A DNA stretch of 64,000 nt. Origin: Myxococcales bacterium (lineage in GTDB: Bacteria > Myxococcota_A > Polyangia > Polyangiales > Polyangiaceae). The notes beneath the pieces are model-generated. The model did no database searches and had not been told where the DNA came from. It was given only the letters and a program-made list of their open reading frames with translations. The position numbers and the translations under genes are program-made. The DNA is taken from positions 281,516 to 345,515 of the forward strand of contig JADKKK010000003.1 of NCBI GenBank assembly GCA_016720545.1, in the 5' to 3' direction. Of this stretch, positions 10,797 through 44,850 are shown in pieces; position 1 is the first letter of the stretch; each line of letters begins with the position of its first letter.

Positions 10797-12800
10797 GTGC
10801 GGTACACCCTCGGCATCGCGGCGGCCGCCGCCGTGGCGCTCGCCGCGACGGCGTGCACGAGCGAGCCCGCGCCGCCGCCGGCGAGCGAGCCCCCGTGCTC
10901 CGTGCGCCTCGGCGCGGAGCCCGGCGCCGACCTCCAGCTCGTGGGCGCGGGTGCGTGCGCGACGACTGTGCGGCTCACCCTCCGCGTGGCCACGGGCTCC
11001 CCGGACGCCCCGTCGTGGACGAGCGCGGAGGGTGCGGCGAGCCCGGTGCGCGTGCGCGGCGCGTGGACGCTCTCGGGGAACGCGGCCGTGCGCACCGTCG
11101 TGGTCGAGAATACGTCCAAGGCGTCGATCGGGGTGGTGGGGCTCGAGTGGTCGACGGGCGAAGGCGCAGGCCTCGGGCTCGGGGTCGATCGCCTGCTGCA
11201 CAGCGGCTACCAGAGCTGGTCCTACACGGGCGTGGAGGCCATCCCGGCGGCGCTCGCGCCGGCGCTCGGAACCGCGCCGCACGGGGGTGACAACGAGGCC
11301 GTGCTCGGTGAGCTCGCCGGCGTGTCGTGGTGGTGGGGCGCCGCCACGAACCCCCGAGGGGTGGGGGTGACCGTGGGCGCGGACGGCGGCACGGTGCTGA
11401 AGACCTACGTCGCGGTCGACGGCGAGGGCGCGCCTCGACTCCGCGTCGTGCAGGGGGCGACCGGCGACGTCCTGACCCTCGCGCCCGGCGAGACGCGCGC
11501 GCTCGACGGCCTCTACGTCGCGCTCGGCGATGCCCGCACGAACCTCGACGACTACACGCGGCACGTCGCCCGCCTCCATCCGCCCGCGACCCCGCGGCAG
11601 CCCGCCCTCGGCGGCTGGGGCTCGTGGAACATGCATTATGCAGGCATCACTGCGGCGACCCTCCGCGAGGAGGCCACATTCGCCGGCAGCACGCTCGCCC
11701 CGCTCGGGCTCCGTGATTTCCTGCTGGATGACGGCTACGAAGCGCGCTGGGGTGGGTGGTCGGCCTCGCCCGCGTTCGGCGCGGACCTCGCCACGCTGAA
11801 CGCCGAGCAAGCCGCGAAGGGCCTGCGCCCCGCGCTGTGGCTCGCGCCGTTCTATGTCGCCGTCGAGGCGCCCGAGGTCACCGCGCACCCCGCGTGGTTC
11901 GTGCACCACGCGGACGGGAAGCTGCGCACGTTCAACAACGTGGGTCCGAGCTACGCCACGCTCGACGTGACCCACCCTGAGGCGCGCGCCTTCGTGGTCG
12001 ACCAGGTGAAACAGCTCCGCGCGTGGGGCTATCGCACGCTCAAGCTCGATTTCCTCTTCGGCGGCGCCACCGAGGGCGTGCGCCAGAAGCCTGTCACGTC
12101 GCTGGAGGCCTACGCACTGTCGATGAAGGCCCTGCGGGAGGCCGCGCCCGACCTCCACCTCACGGGCTGCGGGGCCCCCATCCTGCCCTCGGTGGGCTGG
12201 GTCGACAGCATGCGCATCGGCCCCGACATCGCCTTCGTCACGAGCCCCGAGCCGACCTATCCCTTCCTCAGCGCGCAGGCGCGCCACGTCGCGTTGCGTG
12301 CCCACACCGACGCGTTCTGGGCGCTCGACCCCGACGTGGTGCTCCTCCGGGGCGGGCGCATCACCGACGCCGAGGCCTTCACCGTGGTCGTGTTTTCGGC
12401 GCTGTCGGGGGGCAACTACTTGCTCGGCGACGGGCGCCAGGCGAGCGCAGCGAGGCGCGCCATGGCGCTCGCTCCCGAGGTGCTCGCCCTCTCCCGGGAC
12501 GGCGTGGCGGCGCGCCCGCGCGACCTCATGACCCCTCCCGATCCGAAGCTCTTCCCGAGCCCGCTCTTCATGGGAAACACCGACACCGAGGTCCCCCACG
12601 TGTGGCGCAAGTCGACCCCTGACGGCATCCATGGGGCGCTCGGCGTCTTCGCCTGGGCCTCCGAGTCTTACGCGGCCGACCTCGAGCTGCCGGGCACCGC
12701 CGAAGAGCTCGTGCTCTCCCCGACGGGCACGCTCACGCGGGCGGCCGCGCCGAAGCGCGCGAGCGTTCCCCCGCACGGCGCGAGGCTCTTCGTATGGTGA
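10797..12800 (+). CDS. Glycoside hydrolase family 36-like alpha-galactosidase (melibiase), lipoprotein signal
   Basis: Signal peptide plus Cys (AATACTS). GH36-like core GGWGSWN...FLLDDGYE...LKLDFLFGG. Confidence 0.7.
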   Translation: MRYTLGIAAAAAVALAATACTSEPAPPPASEPPCSVRLGAEPGADLQLVGAGACATTVRLTLRVATGSPDAPSWTSAEGAASPVRVRGAWTLSGNAAVRTVVVENTSKASIGVVGLEWSTGEGAGLGLGVDRLLHSGYQSWSYTGVEAIPAALAPALGTAPHGGDNEAVLGELAGVSWWWGAATNPRGVGVTVGADGGTVLKTYVAVDGEGAPRLRVVQGATGDVLTLAPGETRALDGLYVALGDARTNLDDYTRHVARLHPPATPRQPALGGWGSWNMHYAGITAATLREEATFAGSTLAPLGLRDFLLDDGYEARWGGWSASPAFGADLATLNAEQAAKGLRPALWLAPFYVAVEAPEVTAHPAWFVHHADGKLRTFNNVGPSYATLDVTHPEARAFVVDQVKQLRAWGYRTLKLDFLFGGATEGVRQKPVTSLEAYALSMKALREAAPDLHLTGCGAPILPSVGWVDSMRIGPDIAFVTSPEPTYPFLSAQARHVALRAHTDAFWALDPDVVLLRGGRITDAEAFTVVVFSALSGGNYLLGDGRQASAARRAMALAPEVLALSRDGVAARPRDLMTPPDPKLFPSPLFMGNTDTEVPHVWRKSTPDGIHGALGVFAWASESYAADLELPGTAEELVLSPTGTLTRAAAPKRASVPPHGARLFVW

Positions 12801-14191
12801 GGCGCTCGCTCGCCCCGACGGCGCTCGCGTGGCTCGTGCTCGCCGCGTGCATCAAAGAGCCGTTCGATCCTCAGAAGCTCGGGCCCCCAGTCTTCGTGAA
12901 GGTGGCCCTCCTCACACCCGAGCCCGACGAGCAGCCCTGGGAGCGCGAGAGCGACCACGCGGTGCTCTGGCACGCGCCCGACGTCCCGCTCCCGCCTTCC
13001 GCGCTCGGCGCGGTGTCGCTGTCGCTCGACGACGGCGCGACCTGGGCGCCCGTGTCCATCGGACAGGTCGACCTCCGAAAGAGCCGCGCGCGGGTGCGCG
13101 TGCCGGCCACGGGCGGTACACACCTGCGCGTCCGCGTGCGCCTCGGGGACTACGCGGCCGACTCGGGCGCCATCCCCATCGCTCCGTCGCGAAAGAAGCG
13201 GTACTCGTTCACCCGAATAGGCGCCGATCTCCCGTTCGGCGCGCGAGACGGCATGGGCGGGCTCGTCTTCAATGGCCGCATGTACGGAATCGGGGGCTGG
13301 AACCCCATTCTGTACAAGTTCAACTCGGTCAACGACGTATGGAGCAGCGCCGACGGCGTCCGCTGGACGCTCGTCAAGCCGAACACGTTCCAGGATCCGG
13401 CGACGTTCGACCAAGCGACCGACTGGAGCGGTCGCCACTGGGGGGGATACGCCGTGCACGACGGGAAGATGTTCCTCGTCGGCGGCGACCCCGTCACCGT
13501 CCTCCAGCGCGACGTGTGGAGCTCCACCGACGGCGTCCGCTGGAAGAACGTGACTCAGGAGACCGCCTACCCTCTCCGCGTGCTCCACGTGACCTTCGCG
13601 TTCAACGACCGATTGTGGGTGGTCGGCGGCCAAACGCTGCACGGCACCGACAAGCCCGAGGTGTTCGGCGACGTGTGGAGCAGCCGGGACGGCGCGACCT
13701 GGGAGCGCTCCACCGCGCCTCAGCCACCGCGCTGGGGAGAGCGAGGCATGATCGGCGGCAACGCCGTCTTCCGTGGGCGAATGTGGCTCATCTCGGGCGG
13801 CATCTACGAACAAGAGGGCTATCGCCCGGAGCGCACCGAGTACGACGACGTCTGGTCGACCAGCGACGGCACGAGCTGGAAGCGGGAGCTCATCCACACG
13901 CCGTTTCGCCCGCGCTATTACCACAACGTCGAGGTCTTCGACGACCGGCTCTGGGTGCTCGGCGGCTATGGCTCCGGGTACGTGCTGGGCGAGGAGGGCA
14001 ACCTCTCCGACGTGCACTACACCTCCGACGGACGAAACTGGTATTCGCTGGACATCCCGCCAGGCTTCGTCGGGCGCCACGCGGCCACAGCCTGGGTGCA
14101 CGACGGCGCGATCTACTGGGGCTCGGGGAACGCGGTCGACGCCACGGGGAAGTGGATCGCCGATATGTGGAAGATCACACCTCCGCCGTAG
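12794..14191 (+). CDS. Secreted Kelch/galactose-oxidase-type beta-propeller repeat lipoprotein
   Basis: Signal plus LAAC lipobox. About five repeats of the DVWSS(A/T/R)DG(V/A)(R/T)W motif with GG...W blades. ATGGTGA overlap with the GH36 stop suggests co-transcription. Confidence 0.65.
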   Translation: MVRRSLAPTALAWLVLAACIKEPFDPQKLGPPVFVKVALLTPEPDEQPWERESDHAVLWHAPDVPLPPSALGAVSLSLDDGATWAPVSIGQVDLRKSRARVRVPATGGTHLRVRVRLGDYAADSGAIPIAPSRKKRYSFTRIGADLPFGARDGMGGLVFNGRMYGIGGWNPILYKFNSVNDVWSSADGVRWTLVKPNTFQDPATFDQATDWSGRHWGGYAVHDGKMFLVGGDPVTVLQRDVWSSTDGVRWKNVTQETAYPLRVLHVTFAFNDRLWVVGGQTLHGTDKPEVFGDVWSSRDGATWERSTAPQPPRWGERGMIGGNAVFRGRMWLISGGIYEQEGYRPERTEYDDVWSTSDGTSWKRELIHTPFRPRYYHNVEVFDDRLWVLGGYGSGYVLGEEGNLSDVHYTSDGRNWYSLDIPPGFVGRHAATAWVHDGAIYWGSGNAVDATGKWIADMWKITPPP

Positions 14192-14210: not shown

Positions 14211-16304
14211 CTATTGCGGGCAGGGCGAGCCGAGCGCCGCCGGCGCCGGCACCACGGCGATCCCGGTCTTCTGAAATGTGGAGTGGAAGCAGGCGTACTG
14301 ATACCGCACCGCCTCGAGGCGCCGGTAGATGCCGTGCCCGTCGAACGTGCCCTGCGCGTTCCTGTTGTCGTACTGCGCGACGATCCCCGTGAACGGCTTA
14401 CCCTCCGCGCTCGTGAGGTTCTGCTTCACGGGATACGAAACGGGCTGGTCGAGCCCCACGAGCGCCTGCCCGGCGCGCATGCTCGGCCAGATCTCGTCAC
14501 CCGCGCGCGGGTGCCCATAGCCGAGCGTCATCGCGTCGAAGATGTCGGCGTTGAAGTAGCTGTCCTCCCTGCCGACGGGCTGGTAGACCGCGCGGGTCGG
14601 GTGTCCGGGCAGGGGCCGCCGGCCGAGGCGCGGCGTCGAGACGAGGGGGTCCATCACCTCGAGCGCGGTCTCGATGAGGTGCAGCGCGGGGTGCATGAAC
14701 GTGACCTGCTCGCGCGTGCCAATGAGCAGGCGAATCAAGTTGTATGCGTTCGGGATGACCGTGAGCCTGAGCACGAAATAGGTCCAGAAGCCGCCCGCCC
14801 CCGTGGGCACGACCGCCTGGATGCGTGGCTCGATCGCCGACACCAAGTTGGCGTACATGCCGCCCATGCTCTGCCCCTGAACGCTGAGGCGCGACAGGTC
14901 GAGCTTGTACGCGGTGGCCCCGGCGGGGAGGCTCGCGCCCGCGCAGCCGTCGAGCACCGACTTGGGGATCTCGGTCTTGGCGAGCGCGTCGATGAGCATG
15001 CGCGACTCGAGCATGCCCTGACGGAACGTGTCGCGCACAGCGGGTAGGTTGTTCAGGTTCACGTAGTCGAACGCCTTCGCGCCAGGCACCCGATCGGGGC
15101 TGATGGGCAGCGAGCTGCCGGCCACGGCGAAGCCGAGCGCCGCGAGCGTGGCCGCCGGCCGTTCGTCGGGCGGATCGCCCTTCACGATGCCGTCGACGAG
15201 CTCCCGCGCGACGCCGCCGGAGCCATGGAAGTACACCACGAGCGGATAGCCCGCCGGGGGCATGGCCGTCTTGGGGATGGAGAACGAAACGGAGATCGAC
15301 TCGTCGCGCTGCTTCTTCGGGACCCCGTCGCTCCCGAGCTCGAACAGGCCCTCGCTGTCGAACGGCGCCTTCCCGCGCTGAAACTGGGGCAAATCGATCT
15401 TCGCGGTGACGTGGCAGAAGGGTGCATTCTGCAAGGAAGGCAGCACCTCGTGGGTGAACGAAGCGGTCGCCACCGGGAAACGCTCGGACACGCGCTTCGC
15501 GAGCTCGGCCGTGTCGGCCACCACGTCGCCCGTGGTGAACACCGTCGCGGCGGCCACGTCGGTGCGCGCGACGCCGAGCGTGTCGAGGGTCGAGAGCAGC
15601 GGCGCGTAGAGGCCGCGCAGCGCCTCGCCCCGCGCGCCGGCGGGCGCCTCGCCCCGCAAGATCGGTTCGAACGCCTTCGCCGGGCTCACCTTCCGGCCCG
15701 CCGCGTCGGTGAGCGATCGCCGCACGACGAACGCGTACTTCGTGCCCGGCGCGAGCACCACGCCAGGGCGCGGCGCGAGCGTGAGCAGGTGCTCGGGCAC
15801 GTACGCGTCGGGAGTGGGCGCTCCGGCGACGAGCGGGTAGAGCTTGCCGCGGTCGCGGCTCTTCTCGTCGACGTCCACGAGGAGCACGGGGGAGTCCTTC
15901 GTCGCGGCGATCGCGTCGGTCTCCTTGCGCTCACCGAGCGGGGCCTCGAAGCGGAAGTAGGCGACGGGCAAGACGGGGAACCCTCGCCGCGCCTCAACGA
16001 GCTTCTTGAACTCGTCGATGATGCCGAGGGCCGGGTTCGGGAAGCTCTTCAAGTCGGGCGCGCCGGCGGCGGTGAGGCGCAGGTCGGAGGGATACGGCAG
16101 GTCCCAGAACGCGCCCTCGGCGGCGAGGTCTACGTCGGGGGAGAACACGGCCCGGGCGCCGTCGGCGACCTCCGCTGGAGGCGGCGCGGGGGTCGACGAG
16201 CAGGCCGTCGCGAACGGGAGCACGCCGGCGAGCGAGACGCACGCGAGCGCGGAGAGCGCGGAGAGCGCGGGAGCGAACGAGACCATCCGGCGTGGGAGGC
16301 GCAT
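14211..16304 (-). CDS. Secreted alpha/beta hydrolase (lipase/esterase-like) lipoprotein
   Basis: Signal plus lipobox (FATACSS). YFHGSGG and GQSMGG nucleophile elbow. Confidence 0.65.
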   Translation of the reverse strand: MRLPRRMVSFAPALSALSALACVSLAGVLPFATACSSTPAPPPAEVADGARAVFSPDVDLAAEGAFWDLPYPSDLRLTAAGAPDLKSFPNPALGIIDEFKKLVEARRGFPVLPVAYFRFEAPLGERKETDAIAATKDSPVLLVDVDEKSRDRGKLYPLVAGAPTPDAYVPEHLLTLAPRPGVVLAPGTKYAFVVRRSLTDAAGRKVSPAKAFEPILRGEAPAGARGEALRGLYAPLLSTLDTLGVARTDVAAATVFTTGDVVADTAELAKRVSERFPVATASFTHEVLPSLQNAPFCHVTAKIDLPQFQRGKAPFDSEGLFELGSDGVPKKQRDESISVSFSIPKTAMPPAGYPLVVYFHGSGGVARELVDGIVKGDPPDERPAATLAALGFAVAGSSLPISPDRVPGAKAFDYVNLNNLPAVRDTFRQGMLESRMLIDALAKTEIPKSVLDGCAGASLPAGATAYKLDLSRLSVQGQSMGGMYANLVSAIEPRIQAVVPTGAGGFWTYFVLRLTVIPNAYNLIRLLIGTREQVTFMHPALHLIETALEVMDPLVSTPRLGRRPLPGHPTRAVYQPVGREDSYFNADIFDAMTLGYGHPRAGDEIWPSMRAGQALVGLDQPVSYPVKQNLTSAEGKPFTGIVAQYDNRNAQGTFDGHGIYRRLEAVRYQYACFHSTFQKTGIAVVPAPAALGSPCPQ

Positions 16305-16779: not shown

Positions 16780-17601
16780 TTAGAAGCTGTATCCGACGCG
16801 GAACAGCGTGAGCGTCGGGATGACGAACATGCCGAACGTCTTCGCGGCCTTCCTCGCGTTGGAGTCTTCGGTGCCGTCGGACGCGAACGAAGTGGTCGCC
16901 CCCAACGGGAGCGTCGCGCCCAGATCGCCGCCGAGCGTGAGCCCGCTCTTCAGCGTGACGAGCAGCCCGATTTTTGGTGCAAAATACATACTCTCGGTGA
17001 GGTAGTCGACCTCGCTCCCGAACTTCGACGAGTCGGCGCGCGAGTACTGGTAGCCCACGCCGAGCGCGCCGTAGAGGCTGCGGGAGAACCATCCGTCCGA
17101 GTCGGCGAAGGGGAAATACCGCCCCTGGACGCCCACCTGGAGGAGCGACAGCGTGGTGTCTTCGCCGAACTTCGCGATGCCTGGCGGCAGGTACTCGAAG
17201 ACGAGCCCGACCCCTAGCCGCTGACCGAGCAGCGCGTGCGCCTCGAACGAGATGAGGCGCGGCACCGAGAGCACGCCGAGGGTGGCGACCCAGCGCGTGC
17301 GGGGCGTGGGGACGGGCATCGGGACCCGCTCCGCGGAGGCGGGCGGCTTCGGGGCGGACGGAGCGACCGCCGCCGAGGGCTCCGGGCTCGAGGCGGGCGC
17401 GTCCGCCTGGCCAGGAGCGGCCACCGGCGGAGCGGTGGGGGCGGCGACCGGGGCGGCGACCGGAGCCGGCGGCTCGGGCTCCGTGCCGGCACGGGCGGAG
17501 GCGGACGCAGCGAGCGCGAGGGCGAACGCGAACGCGAACGCGGCGGCGGACGAGAAAGCGCGGACAGCGGGCAGCGGCCATCGGGGGCGGCGCGGGACCA
17601 T
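16780..17601 (-). CDS. Outer-membrane beta-barrel protein (OmpA-like/OmpW-like small barrel), Pro/Ala-rich N-terminal linker
   Basis: Signal peptide AFAFAFALALAASASA. Alternating hydrophobic beta-strand pattern. C-terminal ...FRVGYSF ends in Phe, as OM beta-barrels typically do. Confidence 0.6.
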   Translation of the reverse strand: MVPRRPRWPLPAVRAFSSAAAFAFAFALALAASASARAGTEPEPPAPVAAPVAAPTAPPVAAPGQADAPASSPEPSAAVAPSAPKPPASAERVPMPVPTPRTRWVATLGVLSVPRLISFEAHALLGQRLGVGLVFEYLPPGIAKFGEDTTLSLLQVGVQGRYFPFADSDGWFSRSLYGALGVGYQYSRADSSKFGSEVDYLTESMYFAPKIGLLVTLKSGLTLGGDLGATLPLGATTSFASDGTEDSNARKAAKTFGMFVIPTLTLFRVGYSF

Positions 17602-17707: not shown

Positions 17708-18640
17708 ATGGCGTCTAGTGCTCTCTCCCCCGAGGCGGTCGTGCGATCGCCCGCTCCGCCGGCCTCGCGGCGGTCTCACCTCTCCCTGCGCGCGCTCGGC
17801 GTCGTCGGCGCGCTGGCCGCGATCACGCTGACCGGCTGCGACTTCGGCACGCTCGACTCGCTCTCCACCGACGTCGCGGGAGAGGGCGGGTCGGAGCTCA
17901 GCCTGCTCTCCCGCGGCCTCCTGTCGAAGTACCAAGCCGGGAGCGACGCCGAGTACAAGACGCTGGTGCGCGACATCGAGGGCGTCATGCAGCGGGCCAT
18001 CGACGGCAACGGCGGCGACTCGAACCTGAAGCTCGAGCCGCTGAAGCCCGCCGACATCGCCGACCTCGGTCTACCCCCGCGGGACGTGACCGCCGCGCAG
18101 GGCATGATCATCCTCACCGAGTTGCCGTGCACGCTCTCGCAGGTGGAGAAGCTCACGGCCGCGAAGAACCAACCCGAGCTGTTCCCCAAGACCTACGACA
18201 ACTACCTTCGCACCTACACGTCGAGCTCCGAGGACTACTTCGCCCGAAAGGTGAAGACCCTCACCTGGACCACCGATCTGACCGCGACCGTGCTGTCGCG
18301 GCAGTACCAGAGCGATCTGCGCGGCAGCGTGCGCTTCGTGCCGGGCGCGGGCCCCACCGGGGGCGACTTGGTGCTCTCGCGCACCGTGCTCGTGAAGCCC
18401 GCTACGTTCCTCAAGGGGAGCGACGCGCAGTTCAACCAAGACTACCAAATCGAGGCGTTCTACGAGCGCGCGGCCGGCAGGACGGTCCACGTGTACGCCC
18501 TCTGGCGACAGTTCCTCGTGGGCAGCATTTCCTCGGCCGACGATCTCTACATCTCGATCATCCTCGGCAACCTGAAGGACTTCGACGTGCGCGTGGGCAA
18601 AATCTGCCGGGAGGGCACTCCCCTCCCTGATGTGCGCTGA
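17708..18640 (+). CDS. Hypothetical lipoprotein
   Basis: ALGVVGALAAITLTGC lipobox. No recognisable catalytic motifs. Confidence 0.5.
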   Translation: MASSALSPEAVVRSPAPPASRRSHLSLRALGVVGALAAITLTGCDFGTLDSLSTDVAGEGGSELSLLSRGLLSKYQAGSDAEYKTLVRDIEGVMQRAIDGNGGDSNLKLEPLKPADIADLGLPPRDVTAAQGMIILTELPCTLSQVEKLTAAKNQPELFPKTYDNYLRTYTSSSEDYFARKVKTLTWTTDLTATVLSRQYQSDLRGSVRFVPGAGPTGGDLVLSRTVLVKPATFLKGSDAQFNQDYQIEAFYERAAGRTVHVYALWRQFLVGSISSADDLYISIILGNLKDFDVRVGKICREGTPLPDVR

Positions 18641-18667: not shown

Positions 18668-19963
18668 TCAGAAGAACTGATACACGCCGATGCTCGGCGA
18701 CACCTTGAATGGGCTCTCCACCGGCACGGCCACGTCGAGTCGCATGCCCGTGCCGACGAATTTGGGTATCAGGAACCGCACGCCGAGGCCGCCGGAGAGC
18801 GCGCCGCGACGGGCGCCCTCCTCGGTGCGCCACACCATGCCGTCGACGAAGGCCGTGGGCATCAGGGCCAACCAGGTCGAGTCGAAGGCCACCACGCGGA
18901 GCTCGACGTTGGCGAGGGCGAGCGCGCGCGCGGCCGCGTGGTTGTCGGGGAAGCCGCGCACGAGGTCGAGGCCCCCCGCGTACACGAGCAGGTGACGCGG
19001 CACCGCGGAGACGCCCGCCGCCCGTAGCCGCACCGCGACGTTGGCGCGCGAGCCGACGAGCCCGAAGAGCAGCGCCTCGAGCTGCGCTTGCGCGAACTGC
19101 GAGCCTGGACCGCCCACGGGCAGCCCGAGCCCGGGCTTGAGCTCGAGGCTCGCGCCGGTCTGGCGGAGCCGCACGGTGTCGACGCGGCCCACGCGGAACG
19201 AGGGCTCGAAGAGGGCCGTCTCGGTGGGAGCGGGGAAGTCGGCCGGCGGCTCGAGCGGCTCGAGGAAGCGGTCCGCGAACACGCTCGTGCGGAGCCCCAC
19301 GCGCACGCGATCGCTCAGGAAGAGCCGCGACAGCTCGACCGCCCCGAGGGTGCGCTGGTCGGAGAACCGCGGGCGCGGACGCACGAGGCGCTCGAGCTGC
19401 ACGGTGAGCTCCATGCGCCGGTGAAAGAGCCGCGGATCGCGGAGGATGACCTGGCCACCGTGGAAGCCGTCGAAGAACTGGTACTGCGCCTGCACCTCGA
19501 GGAAGCGCCCCGCCAAGTTGTTGTCCGTCGCTCCAATACGAAAGAAGAAGGCGCTGCCGCCGGAGCCGTAGCCGAGCAGCGGGTTGAGCGTCCAGCGGTC
19601 CTCGAGGTCGAGCGCGAGCACCGTTCGACCGGCGCGACGCTCCACGCGCCCTCGCACCTTGGAGAAGATGGTCGTGTTCCACAGGCGCTTGATGGCGAGA
19701 TCGAGCGCCGGGCGCGCGACCACCTGCCCGGCCTCGAAGCCGAGCTCGCGGAGCACCACGAACTCCTGCGTGCGGATGAGGCCGCGCACCTCGATGGCGT
19801 CGAGTCGCGCGGGCAGGAGGACGTCGGGCGAGACCTCGATCTCGTTGTTCGGCTCGCTCGTCGTGGGCTCCGGTTCGGCTCGCGCGGGTGCGGGCGCCGC
19901 CAGCGCCGCCCCTACGAGGAGCGCGAACGTGAGGGCCGAGGCCAGACCACGCGAACGCCTCAT
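18668..19963 (-). CDS. Omp85-family outer-membrane protein (single POTRA plus beta-barrel; TpsB/TamA/BamA-like)
   Basis: Signal peptide [34 protein letters not shown]-like IEVRGLIRTQEFVVLRELGFEAGQVV...DLAIKRLWNTTIFSKV. Barrel ending ...VSPSIGVYQFF. The ATG (19961-19963) overlaps the TGA of the upstream M20 peptidase (ATGA). Confidence 0.7.
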   Translation of the reverse strand: MRRSRGLASALTFALLVGAALAAPAPARAEPEPTTSEPNNEIEVSPDVLLPARLDAIEVRGLIRTQEFVVLRELGFEAGQVVARPALDLAIKRLWNTTIFSKVRGRVERRAGRTVLALDLEDRWTLNPLLGYGSGGSAFFFRIGATDNNLAGRFLEVQAQYQFFDGFHGGQVILRDPRLFHRRMELTVQLERLVRPRPRFSDQRTLGAVELSRLFLSDRVRVGLRTSVFADRFLEPLEPPADFPAPTETALFEPSFRVGRVDTVRLRQTGASLELKPGLGLPVGGPGSQFAQAQLEALLFGLVGSRANVAVRLRAAGVSAVPRHLLVYAGGLDLVRGFPDNHAAARALALANVELRVVAFDSTWLALMPTAFVDGMVWRTEEGARRGALSGGLGVRFLIPKFVGTGMRLDVAVPVESPFKVSPSIGVYQFF

Positions 19964-21444
19964 TCGACCGACACGTCGACGATGGCGCGGAACAGCGCCC
20001 GCAGCCCGCGCTGCAGGTTCACCACGCTCAGGCGCTCGTTCTTGCCGTGGTACCCGAGGAGCTCCTCCTTCTCGACCTCGAAGGGCATGAAGCCGAACGC
20101 GTGCACGCCCTTGTCGCGGAGGTAGAGGGAGTCGGTGTAGCCGGGCGAGAGCGCTGGCCCCGCGACGACGTGGGTGCGGCCGGCGACCGCGTGCCGCGCG
20201 AGCGCCTGGAAGAACGGATCGTGCCAGGTGTTCCCGCGCGAGGCCGCGCTGTCGAGCACCTCGAACGTGACCTGGGGGTCGGCGACGACGGTCTTCAGCT
20301 CGCCCAGAAAGCCCGAGGGCGAGGTGCCCGGCAGGAGGCGACAGTCGAGGATCGCGGAGACCTTCGAGGGGATGACGTTCGGCTCGTTGCGCCCCTCGAA
20401 GCCCGTCACGTTGACCGTGTTGAAGAGCGTCGCGCGGGCCGGAGGGTTGTCGAGGAGCTTGCCTAGGACGAGCTGCCGCACCAGGAACGGGCGCCGGAGC
20501 ACCTGGCCCGTGATGCCGCCCGTGTCGTAGCCCGCGCGGGCGGCGAGCTCGTAAATCGCCGGGTCGATCACCGGCGCGGGATCGCGCTTCGCGAGCTTGT
20601 CGAGGGCCGCGAGGAGCCGCTCGGGGGCCCGCCCCGGCACGGGCGTCGAGCCGTGCCCGGCCTCGCCGTTGGCCGTCATTTTCACCCACAGCGTGCCCTT
20701 CTCGGCGACCGAGATTGGGTAGACCGTCTGCCCCTCGAGGAGCAGATCTTTGATGCCTATTCCGCCCTCGTTCACCGACTGCGAACACCCAAGTTTGTCC
20801 CAGTGCTTGTCGACCAGGAAGCGCATCCCGCCGCTGTCGGTCTCCTCGGCGGCCACGGCCACGAGCACGACGCTCCGCCGGAGCGGCGCTTTGATGCGCT
20901 TGAGCCACACGAGGCTCATGAGCTCGACCGCGCCGAGGCTCTTCATGTCGAGCGCGCCTCGCCCCCAGATGTAGCCGTCGGCGACGGCGCCCGAGAGCGG
21001 GCCACGCCCGGGCTTCCAGGTGGCGGGCTCGGCGGTGACGACGTCGATGTGCGAGACCAGGCAGAGCGGCGGCTCCTTGCCCGAGCCCTCGAGCCGCGCG
21101 ATGAGGTTGCCCCGGCCGGGCGCGTACTCGAGGATCTCGGAGGGGATCCCTTCGGCCGCGAGGAGCTTGCCGAGGTGCTCGGCGCCGCGCGTCTCGTTGC
21201 CCGGCGGGTTCGTGGTGTCGACCTTGAGGTACTCGGAGAGCACCGTCACGATCTCGGCGTCGGCGCGCGGCCAGTCGACCTTCGCGTAGTACGGCACCGC
21301 GTGCGCGGGCGACGGCGGGAGCTTCGCCTCGGGCAGCGCGCAGTCGAAGAGCAGCAGCGAGAACGCCGCGACGCCCGCGAGCGGCAAGAAGCGCGCGAAG
21401 CGCGCGAAGCGCGATGGACCCGAGCGATGGCGTGGTGCGGCCAT
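19960..21444 (-). CDS. M20-family metallopeptidase (carboxypeptidase G2/ArgE/DapE-like), secreted
   Basis: Signal-like N-terminus [18 protein letters not shown]20 motifs HIDVV...GRGALDMK...AEETD...G(H)GS. 494 aa. Confidence 0.8.
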
Positions 21445-21450
21445 GAGCGC

Positions 21451-22143
21451 CTAAGCTACACCACCGGTCGGGCCTTCCGGGCGCATCTTGCCGTCGACGA
21501 TCTCGAGGCTCCGGTCGCAGCGCGCCGCGATGCGCGGGTCGTGCGTCACGACCAAGAACGCTGTACCAAGCTCGCGGTTGAAGCGGCGCATCAGCGCGAG
21601 CACCTCGGCCGACGACTCGGTGTCGAGGTTGCCGGTGGGCTCGTCGGCGAGCACCAGGGCGGGCTGGTGCACGAGCGCGCGCGCGACGGCGACGCGCTGG
21701 GCCTGCCCTCCCGAGAGCTGGGTGGCCATGTAGTCGATGCGCTCGCCGAGCCCCACGTCGCGCAGCAGCGCCGTCGCCCTCTCGCGGGCGCCGGGAGCGG
21801 GAGCACCGTGCTGGCCCCACGAAGGCAGGAGCACGTTCTCGAGCGAGGTGAACGCGGGCAAGAGGTGGTGGAACTGGAAGATGAAGCCGAGCTTCAGGCC
21901 CCGAAGCTGGGTGAGCCCGGCGTCGTCGAGCGACGACGTGTCGACGCCGTCGATGACGACGCGGCCCGAGGTCGGGCGATCGAGGAGCCCGGCGAGGTTC
22001 AGCAGCGTGCTCTTGCCAGAGCCGGAGGGCCCCATGAGCGACACCACCTCCCCGGCGCCGACGGACATGTCCACGCCGTGGAGCACCCGGGCCGCCGGCC
22101 CGAAGTCCTTCACGACGCCCTCGAGGCGCAGGGCGTCAGCCAT
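21451..22143 (-). CDS. lolD: ABC transporter ATP-binding protein, LolD/MacB-ATPase type
   Basis: [15 protein letters not shown]... Walker [10 protein letters not shown], signature [15 protein letters not shown], Walker [13 protein letters not shown]. The start overlaps the end of the upstream permease. Confidence 0.85.
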
Positions 22144-23362
22144 GGCGGATCGCCGTGGCGGGGTCCATCCTCGCGGCGCGGCGCGCGGGAAGCACGGCGG
22201 AAAGGAGCCCAACTCCCGTGGCGAGGAGGGTCGCGCCGAGGAACAGATCGGCGGTGAGAGTGATCGGGAAGCGCGGCGTCCCGTTGGGATCGACGGCCAA
22301 CCGAGCGAACGAGACCGCGAAGGCCGCGCCCATCGCGGAGCCGAGGAACGAGCCCGAGAGGCCGAGCAGGCCACCCTGGATGAGGAAGATCCGCAGCACC
22401 CGCCGGGCGGGCGTCCCAACGGCTCGTAAGATCCCGATCTCACGCGACTTTTGAACGACCGAGACGATGAGCACGCTCGCGATCCCGAGGGCGACCGCGA
22501 GCACCACGAAGAACTGGATGAGGAGCTTCGAGCTGCTCTGCGCCGAGAGCCCCGCGAGCAGCTCGGCGTTGATCGACATCCAGCTCTCCACGAGGAGCGG
22601 GTGGCGCCCCCGCACGTCGGTCGCGACGCGCTCGGCTTCGAAGACGTCGGAGACCTTCAGCTCCAAGGTGGTCGCGCCGCCCGGCAGCGCGTAGAGCGCC
22701 TGCGCCTGGCGCAGCGAGGTGAGCATCCACGTGGAGTCGACGCCCTTGTTCCCGAGCTCGAAGATGCCGCCGACGGTGACGGTGTCGTCGACGCCCTCTG
22801 AGGTGACGACGCGGACCTTCTCGCCCACCGTCACGCCGAGGTCGGCCGCGAGCCCGCTGCCGAGCACCACGGTCGCCCCCGTGACCTCGAAGCGGCCGGC
22901 GCGGAGGCGCCGCTGAACGTCGATGATCGCCCCGAAGCGATCCGGATCGACGCCGCGCACGACGACGGGACGCTTCGCGAGGCCGCGCTCGGCGAAGCCC
23001 GCGCCGGTCACCGACGGCGACACCGCGATGACCCCCGGGACCCGCTCGAGGTCATGCGCCACGGCGGGCCACTGGTCGATGGACCGGAGCCGCTGCGGCG
23101 CCTTCTGGATGGCCCGCGCGATCACGCGCCCCTCGGAGGGCTCGACGAGCGGACGCGAGCGCTCCTCGGGGACGCGCACCGTCACGTGCGGCTGCGAGCC
23201 GAGGGTCTTGTCGATGAGGCTCGTCTGGAGCCCGGAGATGAGCGCAGAGAGAAACACGACCACGCTCACCCCCACCGACACCGCGGCGAGGATGAGCGCG
23301 GTCTGCGCGCGCTCTTCACGCAGGTAACGAAGCGCGACGAACCACTCGAACGGGAGGGCCAC
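22136..23362 (-). CDS. ABC transporter permease, FtsX/LolC/LolE family
   Basis: 408 aa. An N-terminal TM helix, a large periplasmic domain and the C-terminal FtsX-like 3-TM block (...[24 protein letters not shown]...). Confidence 0.8.
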
Positions 23363-23364
23363 GG

Positions 23365-24600
23365 CTAGTGCACCCCCTCGCGCTCCGCTCCCGCGCGCTC
23401 CACGGCGCGCACGCGGCGACCGGGCTCGATCAGGCGACCGTCGGGCACGATGATCTGCTCGCCTTCGCCAAGGCCGCTCACGATCTCGGTGGCGCCCTCG
23501 GCGCCCTGGCCGCGAATACCGAGCTTCACCGCACGCCGCGCCGCCTTTCCGCCCACGATCGCGAGCACCCAGGGGCTCGGGGTCGCGGCGCCCCGCACGG
23601 CGTCGGTCGGCACCACGAGCGCGGCCTTCTTCGAGGCGACGAGCAGATCGATCGAGACGGTCATGTCCGGGCGCAAGTACGCGGGTGGCTTGGCGACGTC
23701 GAGGCGCACCTCGACCGTCCCTCGTTGCGGATCGATCGACGGCGCGAGGGAGCTCACCTCCGCGTCGAACACCTCGTTCGGGAAGGCGTCGGCCGACGCG
23801 AGCGCTCTCTGCCCGACCGCGACGGTGGAGAGGTTGCGCTCGTCGGCCTGAAACGCGAGCTCGATGTCGCCGTCGACGCCGATGACGAGCAAAGTGCGGC
23901 CCGGCTGCACCACGTCGCCGGGCTCGACGCTCCGCGACAGCACGGTGCCCGGGCTCGCGGCCACGAGGCGGGTCTGCCCGAGGCGCACCTCCGCGCCGGT
24001 GCGCTGGGCCTCGGCCTGGAGCAGCGCGCCCAGCGCGACGCGAGAGTCGGCCCCCATCGGCGCGGACGCCACCTGCTGGGCCTCCGCCGCGTTCTTCCGC
24101 GCCCTGGCGAGGTCGAGCGCCCGATGGGCGGACTCGAGCTCGGTCCGCGGCACGGCCCCCGACGCCGCGAGCGTGGTGGTGCGCCCGAGGTCGGACTCGG
24201 CCTTCGCGAGGTTCGTCTCCGCCTGACGGAGCTCCTGGCTCGCGATGATGGCGCCCACGTGCTGGAGCTGCGCGACCCGCCCGCGGGCCTGCTCGACCGC
24301 CGCCTTCGCCTGCGCGAGGCTCGCGCGCGCCTCCGCGTCGTTGATCTGCACGAGCAGGCTCCCCGCGTCGACGTGCTGCCCGACCGCGGCGCCGACCGCG
24401 ACCGCGAGCCCCGGCGAGGTGGCCGAGACGTTCACCCGCGCGGGCGCGAGCACGCGGCCGCTCGCCACGATGCGGTGCTCGAGATCACTCCGCACGACCC
24501 GCGCCGAGAGCACCTCCGGCCCACGCGCGCGGTGGGCGAGGCCCCCGGCGACCAGGACGACCAGCGCACCGGCGAGGAGCGGACGCGTGGGGAACGCCAT
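23365..24600 (-). CDS. HlyD-family periplasmic adaptor (membrane fusion protein, MacA-like)
   Basis: N-terminal TM helix, coiled-coil segment (EARASLAQAKAAVEQARGRVAQLQ...), then beta-barrel/lipoyl-like C-terminal domains. The listed 685-aa ORF 23365..25422 is an over-extension. Confidence 0.8.
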   Translation of the reverse strand: MAFPTRPLLAGALVVLVAGGLAHRARGPEVLSARVVRSDLEHRIVASGRVLAPARVNVSATSPGLAVAVGAAVGQHVDAGSLLVQINDAEARASLAQAKAAVEQARGRVAQLQHVGAIIASQELRQAETNLAKAESDLGRTTTLAASGAVPRTELESAHRALDLARARKNAAEAQQVASAPMGADSRVALGALLQAEAQRTGAEVRLGQTRLVAASPGTVLSRSVEPGDVVQPGRTLLVIGVDGDIELAFQADERNLSTVAVGQRALASADAFPNEVFDAEVSSLAPSIDPQRGTVEVRLDVAKPPAYLRPDMTVSIDLLVASKKAALVVPTDAVRGAATPSPWVLAIVGGKAARRAVKLGIRGQGAEGATEIVSGLGEGEQIIVPDGRLIEPGRRVRAVERAGAEREGVH

Positions 24601-24749
24601 GGCCGCTCCGTAGCACGGACGTGACCTCATCCGCACACGGATCGCCCCGGCAAGGCGTCGCACCTGGGCACAAAAGGCGAGCAATGATCCACACATGTCG
24701 GATGGAGATCCGCGGCCCGCCACCACGGCTCGGGACGCGCCGACGTGAA

Positions 24750-25562
24750 TCACACCCGACAGGCGACCAGCGACGGGCGGAGCTCGAGCTCGACCCCGAA
24801 CGCGCCCGCCAAGCGCTGGCGCGTGAGGACCGCGGAGGCCTCCCCCTGGGCAACGGTGCGGCCCTCCGCGAGGAGCAGCGCGTGCGTGGCCACGCGGTCG
24901 GCGGCGGCGAAGTCGTGCAGCACGACCACGGTGGCGAGGCCCTCGGCGCGGAGCTCGCCGAGCGCGCGGTAAAAGACCGCCGCGGCGCGCACGTCCAGCG
25001 ACGCGGTCGGCTCGTCGAGCAGCAGGACCTTCGGCTCCTGCGCAAGCGCCCGAGCGAGCGCGACCCGCTGCCGCTCGCCCCCGGAGAGCTCGTCGACGCG
25101 GGCCGACCGGAGCGCCCCGAGCTCGGCGCGCTCGATCTCCCGCTCCACCACCCGCGTGTCCTCCGCCGTCGGCGCGCGCCAGTGCCGCCAGGCGCTCGTG
25201 CCGTGTGTGGGCACGCGCCCCATCGCCACCACCTCGGTCACGGTGAACCCGAAGGCCACCTCGGTCTCCTGGGGGACGAGCGCCATGACGCGGGACGCCT
25301 TGGCGCGATCGTCCAGGGGCTCGCCGAAGAGCCGCACTGTCCCTCGGTCCAGCCGCAGACCGCCCGCCATGACGCGCAGCAGCGTGCTCTTCCCCGAGCC
25401 GTTCGGGCCACAGACCGCCCAAATTTCGCCGGCCTGCACGACGAGATCGACGCCCGAGAGGGCGGCTCGCGCGCCATATCCCGCGACGATCGCGCTGGCC
25501 GCGAGGGGGGGAGGCGATGTCAACGGCACCTGACTCTCCGCGTTAGTGTATCCTCGGACCAT
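24750..25562 (-). CDS. Orphan ABC transporter ATP-binding protein (FecE/FepC/BtuD-like import-type ATPase); start uncertain
   Basis: Walker [14 protein letters not shown], signature LSGGERQRVALARAL, Walker B LLLDEPTASLD, H-loop VLHD. No cognate permease or binding protein adjacent. Confidence 0.75.
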   Translation of the reverse strand: MVRGYTNAESQVPLTSPPPLAASAIVAGYGARAALSGVDLVVQAGEIWAVCGPNGSGKSTLLRVMAGGLRLDRGTVRLFGEPLDDRAKASRVMALVPQETEVAFGFTVTEVVAMGRVPTHGTSAWRHWRAPTAEDTRVVEREIERAELGALRSARVDELSGGERQRVALARALAQEPKVLLLDEPTASLDVRAAAVFYRALGELRAEGLATVVVLHDFAAADRVATHALLLAEGRTVAQGEASAVLTRQRLAGAFGVELELRPSLVACRV

Positions 25563-26275: not shown

Positions 26276-26924
26276 ATGGGCATGTTCGGATCTGCCGCGA
26301 AGGCCAAGATGAAAGACACGTTCGTCGACGACGCCGTTGCCCACCTCGACGCACTCCATGCGGTCGCGTGCCGCCTCACGCGCAACCCGACCGAGGCCGA
26401 GGATCTCGTCCAAGACACGCTCGTCAAGGCCATGCGCGCGCGGGACCAATTCCAGGCCGGCACGAACATGAAGGCGTGGCTCTGCCGCATCCTCACGAAC
26501 ACCTTCATCAACAAGTACCGACGGGGCGGGCTCGAGCGCGCCGTCCTGGACGGCCCTGAACGCCGATCCCCTCGCCGACGGCTGGGTGGGCGCCTCCACC
26601 ATGCGGCAGCTTCGCGATCCGGAGCAGGTCGCCCTCACCCCGGTCGTCGCCGCCGAGGTGCAGCGAGCGCTCGACGAGCTGCCCGCCGAGTTTCGCCTCG
26701 CCGTCATCCTGTCCGACGTGGAGGAGTTCTCCTACGAGGAGATCGCGCAGATCATGGGCTGCCCCATCGGCACCGTGATGAGCCGGCTCCACCGCGGCCG
26801 AAAGCTCCTGCAACGTTCGCTCTACAACCATGCACTAGCGCTCGGCATCGTGAAGGGCGAGGAGCGGGGCCCGTCGCGGCCCGCCGACCTCGCCGAGTTC
26901 CGCCGGCGCAAGGGAGTCGCGTGA
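26276..26924 (+). CDS. ECF (sigma-70 family) sigma factor, apparent +1 frameshift near 26555
   Basis: Region 2 DLVQDTLVKAMRARDQF...WLCRILTNTFINKYRR in ORF 26276. Region 4 ELPAEFRLAVILSDVEEFSYEEIAQIMGCPIGTVMSRLHRGRKLLQ in ORF 26586..26924. Deleting one G in ggacGGccctg joins RAVLD-ALNADPL. Confidence 0.8.
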
Positions 26925-31848: not shown

Positions 31849-32787
31849 ATGCACAACCTGTACGACCGAGTCTTTCCCCGATGGGCGCCAGAGCACAGGT
31901 TCCGCCCGGTGCGCTCGAGCGCGACCGTCGACGCCGCGTCGACGCTCTCGCTGCGCTGGCTCGGCACGGCCAGCTTCGTGCTCGAGAGCGCGACCACCAC
32001 CGTGCTCATCGATCCGTACCTCACGCGCAAGCCGCTCCTCGCCATGCCGTTCGCGCACGAGCCCGACGACGGCGCGATCTTCGGCGCCCTCCCCGACAAG
32101 GTCGACGCGGTGCTCTGCGGGCACTCGCACTACGATCACGTGGCCGACGCGCCGCGGATCGCGAAGCGCACGGGCGCGAAGCTCGTGGGGTCGGAGAGCA
32201 CCTGCGCCTGGGGCGCCGCCGAGGGGCTCAGCGAGTCGCAGCTCGTGCGCGTGGGGCCGCGCGGACGCACCCTCGAGGTGGGCGACATGACCGTTCGCTT
32301 CATCCCGAGCCAGCACGGGAAGGTCGCGTTTCACCGCGTGCCGTTCCCGGGCTTCGTGACCGAGGCGCCGAGGCTCCCGCAGCCCGTCTGGGCCTACAAG
32401 ATGGGCGGCGCGTTCGGCATCCACGTGCGCGTGGGCGCGCTTTCGGTCTACCACAACGGCAGCGCCGACCTCATCGACGCGGAGCTGCGCGACGTGCGCG
32501 CCGACGTGCTCCTCGCCTGCCTCGCGGGCCGCCGGGGCACGGAGAGCTACCTCCGGCGCCTCGTCGATCACCTGCACCCCGGCCTCGTGGTGCCGACCCA
32601 CCACGACGCGTTCTTCGCGCCGCTCTCGCGGGGCGTGCACCTCTTGCCGCGCATCGACCTCGGGGGCTTCCTCGCGGAGACCGCGGTGTACGCGCCCGGC
32701 GCCACCCGCGTGACCGTCGACTACCTGGAGACTCTCTCGGTGCCGCTCGGCGACGCCCGCGGCGCGGCGCTCCTCCCACGCGCGTGA
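31849..32787 (+). CDS. MBL-fold metallo-hydrolase
   Basis: LCGHSHYDHV metal-binding motif and further His/Asp positions (HGK, HHD). Confidence 0.7.
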   Translation: MHNLYDRVFPRWAPEHRFRPVRSSATVDAASTLSLRWLGTASFVLESATTTVLIDPYLTRKPLLAMPFAHEPDDGAIFGALPDKVDAVLCGHSHYDHVADAPRIAKRTGAKLVGSESTCAWGAAEGLSESQLVRVGPRGRTLEVGDMTVRFIPSQHGKVAFHRVPFPGFVTEAPRLPQPVWAYKMGGAFGIHVRVGALSVYHNGSADLIDAELRDVRADVLLACLAGRRGTESYLRRLVDHLHPGLVVPTHHDAFFAPLSRGVHLLPRIDLGGFLAETAVYAPGATRVTVDYLETLSVPLGDARGAALLPRA

Positions 32788-42826: not shown

Positions 42827-44258
42827 GCCCCCAGCTCCTCTTGCAGCGCCGCCATCTCCTCCAGCGCCACCGAGAGCTGCGCGACAATCTCCGCCGCGAT
42901 CTCCTCCGGCTCCGGCAAGTCCGCGTGGTCGGTCACGCTCTCATCCCGCAGCCACGAGATATCCAGGTTCTCCCCCCGCTTCGCGATCTCCTCCCGCGTG
43001 AACTTCCGGAACCTCCCGTCTCGCCCTGGTCCTTCCGCTTGCTCTTCCCTAGCGGATCCGCCCCGTAGGCCTTCTCGAACTCCGCGAAGTGCGCGCGCGT
43101 GAACGGCGTGCGCTTGCCGAAGCTCGGCATGTTGGTGCGCAGGTCGTAGAACCACACGGCCTTCGTGTTGCCCTTGTCCTGCTTCTTCTCCCCCCGCGTG
43201 AAGAAGAGCACGTTGGTCTTCACGCCCTGCGCGTAGAAGATGCCCGTGGGCAGCCGCAGGATGGTGTGCAGATCGCACTTGTCCATCAAGTCGGCGCGCA
43301 CCTGCTTTCCCACGCCCTCCTCGAAGAGCACGTTGTCCGGGAGCACCACCGCCGCGCGCCCGCCGGGCACGAGGCCTCGGTAGATGTGCTGGAGGAACAC
43401 GAGCTGCTTGTTGCTCGTGGGGTACGTGAGGTCGTCGCGCGTGGGGGCGCCGCCGCCCTTCTTGGTGCCGAAGGGGGGATTCGTGAGGATCACGTTCGCC
43501 TTCGGCAGGTTGGCGCCCGAGGGGCCGAGCGTGTCGCCGAGCACGAGGTCGCCCTCGATGTCGTGGAGCATGGCGTTCATGAGCGCCAGGCGCTGCACGT
43601 CGGCCACGAGCTCCATCCCCTGGAAGGCCTCGCGTCGCTGGAAGTTCTGCTTGGCCACGGGCAAGTCGTGGAGATCGTCGGTGTTCGCCTTCACGTACCT
43701 GTCGGCGTTGATGAGGAATCCCCCGGTGCCGATCGCGGGATCTTGGATGATTTCGCCCGGCTGGGGCTTCACGAGGGCGACCATGCTCTCGATGAGCGCG
43801 CGCGGCGTGAAGTATTGCCCCGCGCCGCTCTTGGTCTCCTCCGCGTTCTTCTCGAGCAGGCCCTCGTAGAGGTCCCCGAGCCCCTCGGACTTGGCGCTGT
43901 ACCAGTCGAGCGCGTCGATCGCCTCGACCACCGTGCGCAGGTTCCGCGGCTGCCGGAACGAGGTGCCCGCGTTGGCGAAGATCGCCTGCACGCGCCCCGA
44001 GCCTTTGCCGCCGAGATCGATGAGGAGCTTCTTGTAGAAGTCGAGCAGCTCCACGCCCTCTTTGTTGACGAGATCGCCCCAGCGATAGCCCTTGGGGAGC
44101 TGGTCCTCGGTGCCTGTCTCCTTGGTCATCTTGAGGAAGAGGAGATAGGTGAGCTCGGTCACGTACTGGAGATACGTGATGCCGTCGTCACGGAGGACGT
44201 GGCAGAGGTTCCAGAGCTTCTGGACGATGTCGTTCGTGGTCGGCGCGGCGGGTGGCAT
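42823..44258 (-). CDS. hsdM: Type I restriction-modification N6-adenine DNA methyltransferase HsdM, with an apparent -1 frameshift near 43040 affecting the last ~65 aa
   Basis: MPPAAPTTNDIVQKLWNLCHVLRDDGI...QYFTPRALIESMV...DPAIGTGGFL...LTNPPFG... C-terminus ...RFRKFTREEIAKRGENLDISWLRDES...LPEPEEIAAEIV lies in ORF 42823..43278. Adding one G in acGGGagg joins the frames. The stop overlaps the hsdS start. Confidence 0.85.
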
Positions 44259-44679: not shown

Positions 44680-44850
44680 TCGCGGCCCTCACCCCCTCGC
44701 GCAGCGGCACGAGACCCACGTGCCCCTCTCCCACAAGGGGAGATGGGCCCCTTCCGGAGCAGCTCGTGTGGCCCCTCTCCCCTTGTGGGAGAGGGGCACA
44801 AGTCGCCCGCGCCGCTCACGGGCGGGGTGAGGGCTCACGGGCGTGGTGGG
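44680..44850. repeat. GC-rich repeat block R2 containing a 23-bp perfect inverted repeat (GTGCCCCTCTCCCACAAGGGGAG...CTCCCCTTGTGGGAGAGGGGCAC) and GGGCGGGGTGAGGGC
   Basis: Direct reading. Same motif family as R1 and R3. Confidence 0.8.

Follow-up and report, generated by a model that had tools for sequence, protein, structure and literature searches.

A conserved M20 hydrolase–Omp85 gene pair within a composite gene cluster of a Myxococcales bacterium

The window analysed here is a 64,000-nucleotide stretch of a Myxococcales bacterium (assembly GCA_016720545.1, contig JADKKK010000003.1, positions 281,516 to 345,515 of the forward strand), and we focus on six minus-strand genes at 18668-25562, referred to as g1 to g6 in their order along that strand (Table 1). 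A first-pass annotation had read them as one operon and, as one possibility, as an export system in which an Omp85 barrel takes the place of TolC. Here, we found that the cluster is composite. It joins the gene of an importer-type ABC ATPase (g1), an ABC pump related to MacAB-TolC, LolCDE and DevBCA (g2-g4) and a pair formed by the genes of an M20-family hydrolase (g5) and of a small Omp85 barrel with one POTRA domain (g6). Judged from the gene neighbourhoods in other genomes, this pair is the conserved unit, an ancient outer-membrane module that is so far found only in Myxococcota.

Genes and blocks of the cluster

Because the GC content of the window is about 71%, raw lists of open reading frames (ORFs) are full of spurious frames, and the genes were resolved by a frame plot of GC content at third codon positions (GC3) together with the ORF translations. 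Two near-identical assemblies of the same organism, which differ from the window at about 0.1-0.2% of positions, have public gene calls with the same six gene models. Together with the Pfam and NCBIfam matches, these data confirmed the six minus-strand genes and the identities given to them by the first-pass annotation.

From g2 onwards the genes are tightly packed: g2 and g3 are 2 nt apart, the start of g4 overlaps the end of g3 by 8 nt, g5 begins 6 nt after g4, and the overlapping stop and start codons that had been noted between g5 and g6 are indeed there. Based on this spacing, with the M20 gene directly downstream of the pump, g2-g6 are probably co-transcribed in the window and in its three pump-linked relatives (loci L002-L004; together the window clade). 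A consensus scan of the gap between g1 and g2 gave no promoter or terminator and is uninformative at 71% GC; the gap probably holds the pump operon's own promoter region.

Table 1. Coordinates of the cluster genes and of two neighbouring genes in the window
Feature	Position	Strand	Size	Description
g1	24750-25562	-	270 aa	importer-type ABC ATPase
g1/g2 intergenic region	24601-24749	-	149 nt	holds the synteny breakpoint
g2	23365-24600	-	411 aa (public gene call)	HlyD/RND_mfp periplasmic adaptor (membrane fusion protein)
g3	22136-23362	-	408 aa	type VII ABC permease, MacB_PCD and FtsX, LolC/E-like
g4	21451-22143	-	230 aa	LolD/MacB-type ABC ATPase
g5	19960-21444	-	494 aa	M20-family zinc hydrolase with dimerisation domain
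g5/g6 stop/start overlap	19960-19963	-	4 nt	ATGA, from sequence
g6	18668-19963	-	431 aa	BamA/TamA-like Omp85, one POTRA
c1	17708-18640	+		START/Bet v 1 (SRPBCC)-fold lipoprotein; convergent with g6, 27 nt apart
c3	16780-17601	-		small secreted protein, C-terminal RVGYSF

The first gene stands apart from the others. g1 carries the Pfam domain ABC_tran and resembles HmuV, BtuD and FecE, its best NCBIfam matches being the ATPases of heme, corrinoid and FecE importers, all scoring under the curated cut-offs; the window yielded neither a permease nor a binding protein that would go with it. The earlier identification as a FecE/BtuD-like ATPase without a permease therefore stands, and its membership of the operon does not, given the 149-nt gap, the synteny break and its absence elsewhere. 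Indeed, L002-L004 lack g1 although their barrels are 79-94% identical to that of the window, and the only g1 matches there come from cross-matching to the g4 homologue. The nucleotide sequences of the window and of these three loci cease to be similar at 24612-24617, just upstream of the g2 ATG at 24600, so that g1 belongs to a different block. By this comparison, g1 lies beyond the synteny break, outside the tightly spaced conserved unit, and is unrelated to the rest of the cluster.

The genes g2-g4 encode the parts of a type VII ABC system as found in MacAB-TolC, LolCDE and DevBCA, namely an adaptor, an ATPase resembling LolD and MacB, and a four-helix FtsX permease whose periplasmic domain is of the MacB type. 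The adaptor g2 matches Pfam HlyD_D23 and HlyD_3 and the RND_mfp model TIGR01730 (161 bits, cut-off 94.9). The equivalog scores for type VII systems all lie below cut-off: g3, with MacB_PCD and FtsX domains, matches the LolC/E model lolCE best (178.8 bits, cut-off 362.45), g4, with ABC_tran, matches LolD TIGR02211 best (243.4 bits, cut-off 307.75) and the MacB and DevA models as well, and the MacB equivalog gives 47.6 bits for g3 and 204.9 bits for g4 against a cut-off of 966. Furthermore, MacB has its ATPase fused at the N-terminus, whereas the g4 ATPase is a separate gene, and LolCDE of E. coli has no adaptor, whereas g2-g4 combine a single permease gene with an adaptor gene of the HlyD family.

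This trio has a distribution of its own. For g3 we found 4663 matches at E<=1e-20, the top 120 homologue clusters all being at least 67% identical and 404-412 aa long, compared to 135 matches at E<=1e-5 for the barrel family. In three large Polyangia genomes including Sorangium sp. So ce362 (L130-L132, 69-73% identity), adaptor, permease and ATPase stand alone, flanked by unrelated genes and by no TolC, M20 or Omp85 gene; among the relatives, the trio adjoins the barrel only in L002-L004. As far as homologue searches tell, g2-g4 is an independent module that is widely conserved in Polyangia and far more widespread than the barrel family. The reported lack of TolC was borne out by Pfam, which detected no OEP/TolC domain in the cluster or the other ORFs tested (about 35 window ORFs, a non-exhaustive scan). 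Since the stand-alone trios lack an adjacent TolC gene as well, its absence is normal for this pump family, and the pump probably works with an outer-membrane partner encoded elsewhere.

The M20–Omp85 pair across myxobacteria

Is the six-gene order conserved across Myxococcota? A pattern-plus-tblastn scan of the GTDB species representatives yielded 51 loci, most of them in metagenome-assembled genomes (MAGs) and nearly all labelled Myxococcota (Polyangia and Myxococcia), with one outlier at 31% identity that is labelled only "bacterium". We mapped the six window proteins onto these loci, clustered all flanking ORFs and used the 49 full-length loci for the counts. The six genes were not conserved together as a unit. 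In 31 of the 49 loci, however, the M20 gene directly precedes the barrel gene on the same strand, and in two more it is nearby. A 4-nt ATGA or GTGA overlap joins the two genes in 25 of 32 M20–barrel pairs, across both Polyangia and Myxococcia; the exceptions seem for the most part to be cases in which the start-codon heuristic failed. The flanking genes are reshuffled between lineages, with the exception of c1. Because the pair stays together while its surroundings are reshuffled, its adjacency and coupling appear to be under selection.

In a neighbour-joining tree of the barrels, M20 pairing occurs on the Polyangia side and on the Myxococcia side and is missing in one Myxococcia subclade and in one Labilithrix paralogue; on this tree, the pairing is placed as ancestral and as lost in these two lineages. 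The Myxococcia loci without M20 are L021, L023, L025, L030, L037, L039, L040 and L045. Upstream of the barrel, the M20-less loci carry genes for large Ig-like/VWA, TPR-transglutaminase, OmpA-family or HDOD proteins, or genes on the opposite strand, and because these vary, there seems to be no single alternative cargo. We also observed a conserved gene set that comes after the barrel and c1 in the M20-less subclade and encodes a cyclophilin-type prolyl isomerase, a glutaminase-like/PPC-domain protein and a protein of metallo-beta-lactamase (MBL) fold.

A metagenome scan seeded with the M20 protein returned mostly gut relatives at 26-28% identity with an upstream ABC ATPase, which we rejected as amino-acid importers (SBP_bac_3, BPD_transp_1 and ATPase) with a cytosolic M20 protein; four closer matches (35-43% identity, L054-L057) had no Omp85 or c1 gene nearby. 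In the literature we found no description of an M20–Omp85 pair or of a myxobacterial one-POTRA Omp85 family with partners. The pair is thus previously undescribed, with a logic related to type Vd and two-partner systems.

The hydrolase g5 matches Peptidase_M20 (PF01546, 75.8 bits) and M20_dimer (PF07687, 48.3 bits), both above cut-off. Its closest solved relative by sequence is DapE (E 9.5e-18), and in NCBIfam it falls among uncharacterised M20 subfamilies. A motif starting with SHx and the motif HGxxER, metal-binding and catalytic, are conserved to at least 95% across 29 sequences; by analogy with DapE and CPG2, we assign them to the metal ligands, the His/Asp/Glu/Glu/His set, together with the catalytic Glu. 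Since these motifs are conserved, g5 is probably an active enzyme. Nearly all M20 homologues carry a canonical lipobox of the form [LVI][ASTVI][GAS]C (e.g. LLSGC, LLTGC or LFSGC), mostly with Ala after the Cys, which points to a family that is ancestrally a lipoprotein. By the Myxococcus rule that Lys at +2 retains lipoproteins in the inner membrane (PMC3222651), the homologues would not be retained there. Thus, the M20 assignment and the dimerisation domain of the earlier description hold, while a soluble secreted enzyme does not fit the family.

In the window, however, the lipobox is degenerate (LLLFDC, with LFDC at 21340-21351, residues 32-35) and the rule is broken at -1, where Asp stands, and at -2. 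The Asp at -1 makes lipidation of the window protein doubtful. The same LFDC box is present in L002, L003 and L004, which is exactly the pump-linked clade. The box is hence degenerate only where the M20 gene joined the pump operon, either by coincidence or in connection with a changed exit from the inner membrane.

For g6, the sequence match to Omp85/BamA is weak (PF01103, 17.8 bits) and the assignment becomes firm with structure prediction. An AlphaFold2 model built from an alignment of 21 homologues (predicted local distance difference test, pLDDT, 85.8; predicted template modelling score, pTM, 0.80) shows a signal peptide, a short disordered linker, one POTRA (beta-alpha-alpha-beta-beta, residues 56-122) and, after residue 127, a barrel of 16 strands in which a long loop joins strands 11 and 12. 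The best Foldseek matches were to BamA (E 5e-16, template modelling score 0.70) and to TamA. In loop L6 we found the motif GGLDLVRGFPDN, which includes LVRGF, with R336 and G337 invariant in the 21 sequences, as is the C-terminus GVYQFF. The L6 RGF motif, (V/I)RG(F/Y) in its general form, whose role is known from BamA and FhaC, is together with an aromatic beta-signal a hallmark of Omp85 proteins. For many g6 homologues, the POTRA (PF07244) and Omp85 (PF01103) matches are also precomputed. With its 16-strand barrel, PF07244-type POTRA, L6 motif and aromatic C-terminus, g6 belongs to the BamA/TamA-like branch of the Omp85 superfamily.

BamA proper and TpsB were considered and rejected. g6 scores 37.7 bits against the BamA model TIGR03303 (cut-off 297.15), its residues 29-191 matching positions 297-464 of that model, and its single POTRA compares with five in BamA and three in TamA. 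A TamB/AsmA-like partner was not found near g6, which is coupled to an M20 lipoprotein gene instead. A TpsB is ruled out by the lack of ShlB (PF03865) and POTRA_2 matches, by the single POTRA and by a partner without a two-partner secretion (TPS) domain, so that of the earlier label, an Omp85/TpsB-like barrel with one POTRA, only the TpsB part falls. g6 fits the "BamA-like" subfamily with 1-3 POTRA domains that Heinz and Lithgow described in 2014 and left without a function (PMC4104836).

In a profile search of the whole library, the barrel family has 231 representatives at E<=1e-30, almost all of 400-480 aa with one POTRA. Among the related proteins is P0394, a fusion of Metallophos, POTRA and Omp85 domains with 184 bits against the family profile. 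The second-tier one-POTRA Omp85 protein P0307 has unrelated neighbours, which suggests that only the core family has the M20 link. Apart from BamA, TamA and the TpsB and PlpD translocators, the many "BamA-like" paralogues have no assigned partners or functions; the present family now has a coupled enzyme partner, a second partner with a lipid-binding fold and a fused enzyme–barrel relative.

The second partner is c1. It has no Pfam match and adopts the helix-grip fold of the START/Bet v 1 (SRPBCC) type with its hydrophobic pocket, a fold that binds hydrophobic ligands. Of the 49 loci, 34 have a c1 homologue no more than 10 kb from the barrel, including the M20-less subclade, which links this fold to the barrel. 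In an alignment of 23 sequences, CDFGTLD is invariant directly after the Cys of the lipid anchor, and two more cysteines are invariant. We observed that this motif (17837-17857 in the window, c1 residues 44-50) is followed by acidic residues and could be a sorting or recognition signal. A conserved, negatively charged motif placed in this way is reminiscent of the signals for lipoprotein export in Bacteroidota.

Possible roles of the pair and the pump

What could the pair do? With modest confidence we favour a composite cluster in which the barrel assembles or surface-exposes the hydrolase. In the narrow clade of the window, the g5-g6 module would have come to lie 6 nt downstream of an independent pump. 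Translational coupling would yield M20 and barrel in a fixed proportion, as a stoichiometric outer-membrane unit. The POTRA may capture the hydrolase in the periplasm, and the barrel would assemble it at the outer membrane, most likely exposing M20 on the cell surface. By analogy with PlpD (type Vd) and other proteins that join hydrolase, POTRA and barrel, the pair would be their split, in-trans counterpart.

Patatin-POTRA-Omp85 (PlpD) and hydrolase-Omp85 fusions, the latter as a 'Metallo' subfamily, were described by Heinz and Lithgow (PMC4104836), and the gene order from M20 to POTRA-barrel mirrors their domain order of hydrolase, POTRA and Omp85. Shared with PlpD are a hydrolase, exactly one POTRA and a 16-strand barrel of the Omp85 type. 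They differ in that PlpD has a fused patatin (other fusions are calcineurin-like), whereas here a separate, coupled M20 zinc hydrolase is encoded, which is ancestrally lipid-anchored. With two-partner secretion (TpsA/TpsB, FHA/FhaC) the pair has in common that a cargo and a dedicated barrel of the Omp85 superfamily are encoded side by side and co-expressed. TpsB, on the other hand, has two POTRA_2 domains and ShlB, whereas g6 is of the PF01103/PF07244 type with one POTRA and shows no N-terminal plug helix in the model, and its partner is globular without a TPS domain. The first-pass annotation had left open whether the barrel serves the pump or the peptidase; the counts of adjacent and overlapping pairs amid scrambled flanks favour the two-partner-like arrangement with the peptidase and not the route through the pump.

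Several points weigh against this account. BamA and TamA barrels are insertases and not open secretion pores, and translocation of M20 enzymes would be demanding because they are folded dimers. In one Myxococcia subclade, barrel and c1 persist without an adjacent M20 gene, so the barrel has a role that does not strictly need one. The degenerate lipobox of the window clade, with doubtful lipidation of the window protein, adds to this, as does the recurrence of FtsX-type ABC genes beside the barrel in four independent contexts, to which we return below. Finally, we infer both the interaction between M20 and barrel and the side of the membrane on which M20 resides.

The main rival, which computation does not separate from surface exposure, is a complex resembling BAM, the beta-barrel assembly machinery; we regard it as possible but rather unlikely. 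Here, the one-POTRA Omp85 would be an outer-membrane insertase or scaffold, and the M20 and START lipoproteins would be accessories facing the periplasm, as BamB-E are for BamA. The M20 enzyme would then stay periplasmic and, on the outer membrane's inner face, trim peptides or N-acyl compounds. Such a complex would agree with the kinship of g6 to BamA and TamA rather than to TpsB translocators, with the lipoprotein nature of both conserved partners, with a conserved translational coupling that suits a stoichiometric complex and with the persistence of barrel and c1 without M20 in one subclade; assembly-factor roles were also proposed for the BamA-like subfamily (PMC4104836). Nevertheless, no conserved client outer-membrane protein is encoded nearby, c3 being restricted to Polyangia, and the enzyme–Omp85 fusions among related proteins, together with PlpD, suggest that the hydrolase is cargo and not helper. 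We know of no BAM accessory subunit that is an enzyme.

A broader idea, which we consider speculative and unlikely, is that M20, the one-POTRA barrel and the START lipoprotein form a myxobacterial outer-membrane machine that would move lipid-anchored or lipidic cargo to the surface and be fed by type VII ABC systems in some lineages. If true, this would be an Omp85-based export of surface lipoproteins or lipids distinct from Lol/Bam, Slam and two-partner secretion, and it could relate to the unexplained export of lipoproteins to the extracellular matrix of Myxococcus (PMC3222651).

Could the pump itself deliver to the barrel? In such a TolC-free route through g2-g6, the type VII ABC transporter and its HlyD adaptor would extract a hydrophobic cargo (the M20 or c1 lipoprotein, or a lipid) towards the barrel. 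We hold this to be improbable. The operon-like spacing of g2-g6 in the window clade speaks for it, as does the link of a START-fold lipoprotein to the barrel. Moreover, FtsX-family genes lie within about 4 kb of the barrel family in four separate arrangements: in the window clade; in L029, L030 and L034, with two FtsX genes right behind the barrel gene; in L042, with an FtsX gene that begins directly behind the stop codon of the M20 gene; and in L010, which has genes for an ATPase and a duplicated FtsX permease in divergent orientation upstream. Farther out, the flanks of these loci contain no FtsX gene. If about 0.5% of myxobacterial genes are taken to be of FtsX type, roughly one FtsX context would be expected among about 26 instead of the four seen, an excess built on few independent events and an assumed background rate. 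These neighbourhoods are suggestive of a link between FtsX-type ABC systems and the barrel family, and because of this recurrence, the adjacency of the pump in the window clade may not be purely accidental.

There are also parallels in other systems. An Omp85 gene beside a MacB-like ABC transporter is already known computationally from Borrelia, where BBJ23-29 comprise the Omp85-family protein BBJ25, a MacB-like ABC transporter and a LolA-like protein, proposed in a computational study of 2026 to export lipoproteins or non-polar ligands (PMC13078400). In both systems, an Omp85 barrel is encoded beside a type VII ABC transporter and a binding protein for hydrophobic ligands. Compared by description, they differ in phylum, in the LolA-like protein in place of the START-fold c1 and in the absence of M20, and in the myxobacterial barrel family the ABC link is sporadic. 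In YbbAP-TesA, a type VII ABC transporter works with a hydrolase (PMC12646458). Here, as in FtsEX-hydrolase systems, an FtsX-family ABC system is genetically paired with a periplasmic hydrolase, an arrangement comparable to L042; their hydrolases, however, are an SGNH thioesterase or amidase activators and not M20 enzymes, and the pump family of the window occurs without M20 in other genomes.

Against a barrel fed by the pump, the g2-g4 trio stands elsewhere without an adjoining M20 or Omp85 gene, ABC genes are absent within 10 kb from 27 of the 31 loci in which the pair is adjacent, and the other three FtsX contexts lack an adaptor gene. MacA-type hairpins dock onto the alpha-barrel of TolC. 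In the g6 model, the single POTRA is the sole predicted periplasmic part, and there is neither a TolC-like alpha-barrel nor another periplasmic duct for an adaptor hairpin, so that the adaptor-plus-TolC logic does not appear to transfer to g6. The proposal that an Omp85 barrel replaces TolC in a six-gene export system was thus not upheld, the pump adjoining the pair in L002-L004 and standing alone elsewhere. More generally, tight operon spacing in one genome, as between this pump and this pair, can be a recent juxtaposition of independent modules.

That the M20 and Omp85 genes are neighbours by descent or chance with unrelated functions would suit loci drawn from a single phylum and often from MAGs of related lineages, and it is already disfavoured as very improbable, since the two genes have kept their adjacency, their orientation and the exact 4-nt overlap in two classes with protein identities of 38-58%, a distance over which all flanking genes but c1 are reshuffled.

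For predation, myxobacteria rely on hydrolases that they secrete or carry at the surface. Assembly of M20 by its barrel offers a testable hypothesis of how a folded, possibly lipid-anchored hydrolase reaches or is held at the myxobacterial surface.

Neighbouring genes in the window

The small protein c3, which ends in an aromatic residue, has no Pfam match and may be an outer-membrane protein. It accompanies the module in 13 loci, whose barrel genes are all of the Polyangia type, and only in Polyangia is it syntenic with c1; c3 is an uncertain member of the module. Beyond c3, a 697-aa predicted lipoprotein with a weak PETase/alpha-beta-hydrolase signal (14211-16304, minus strand; cluster c11) is syntenic with the module in several Polyangia loci, and a predicted lipoprotein with Kelch repeats is encoded at 12794-14191 (plus strand).

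A second, unusual Omp85 architecture lies 13 kb from the pair. This 989-aa secreted protein (32843-35812, plus strand) combines PD40/TolB-like beta-propeller repeats with a C-terminal Omp85 domain (PF01103, 24.1 bits, at the cut-off). It is preceded by an MBL-fold gene at 31849-32787; MBL-fold genes recur near the one-POTRA barrel in Myxococcia loci. A 603-aa ORF at 61770-63581 (minus strand) contains a patatin-like phospholipase domain, the domain that is fused to Omp85 in PlpD, the closest analogue of the pair.

Upstream of g1, the gene of an extracytoplasmic function (ECF) sigma factor (26276-26924, plus strand) is frameshifted by an extra A at 26559 and is intact, with 213-215 aa, in two other assemblies of the same organism; the extra A is probably an assembly or sequencing error, or else a strain-level pseudogene. 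Further away, the region 42933-50074 has a lower GC content of about 66-68% and encodes a type I restriction-modification methylase (HsdM/N6_Mtase), with a YhgA-like transposase gene nearby at 51451-52581, and is probably a mobile or horizontally acquired island.

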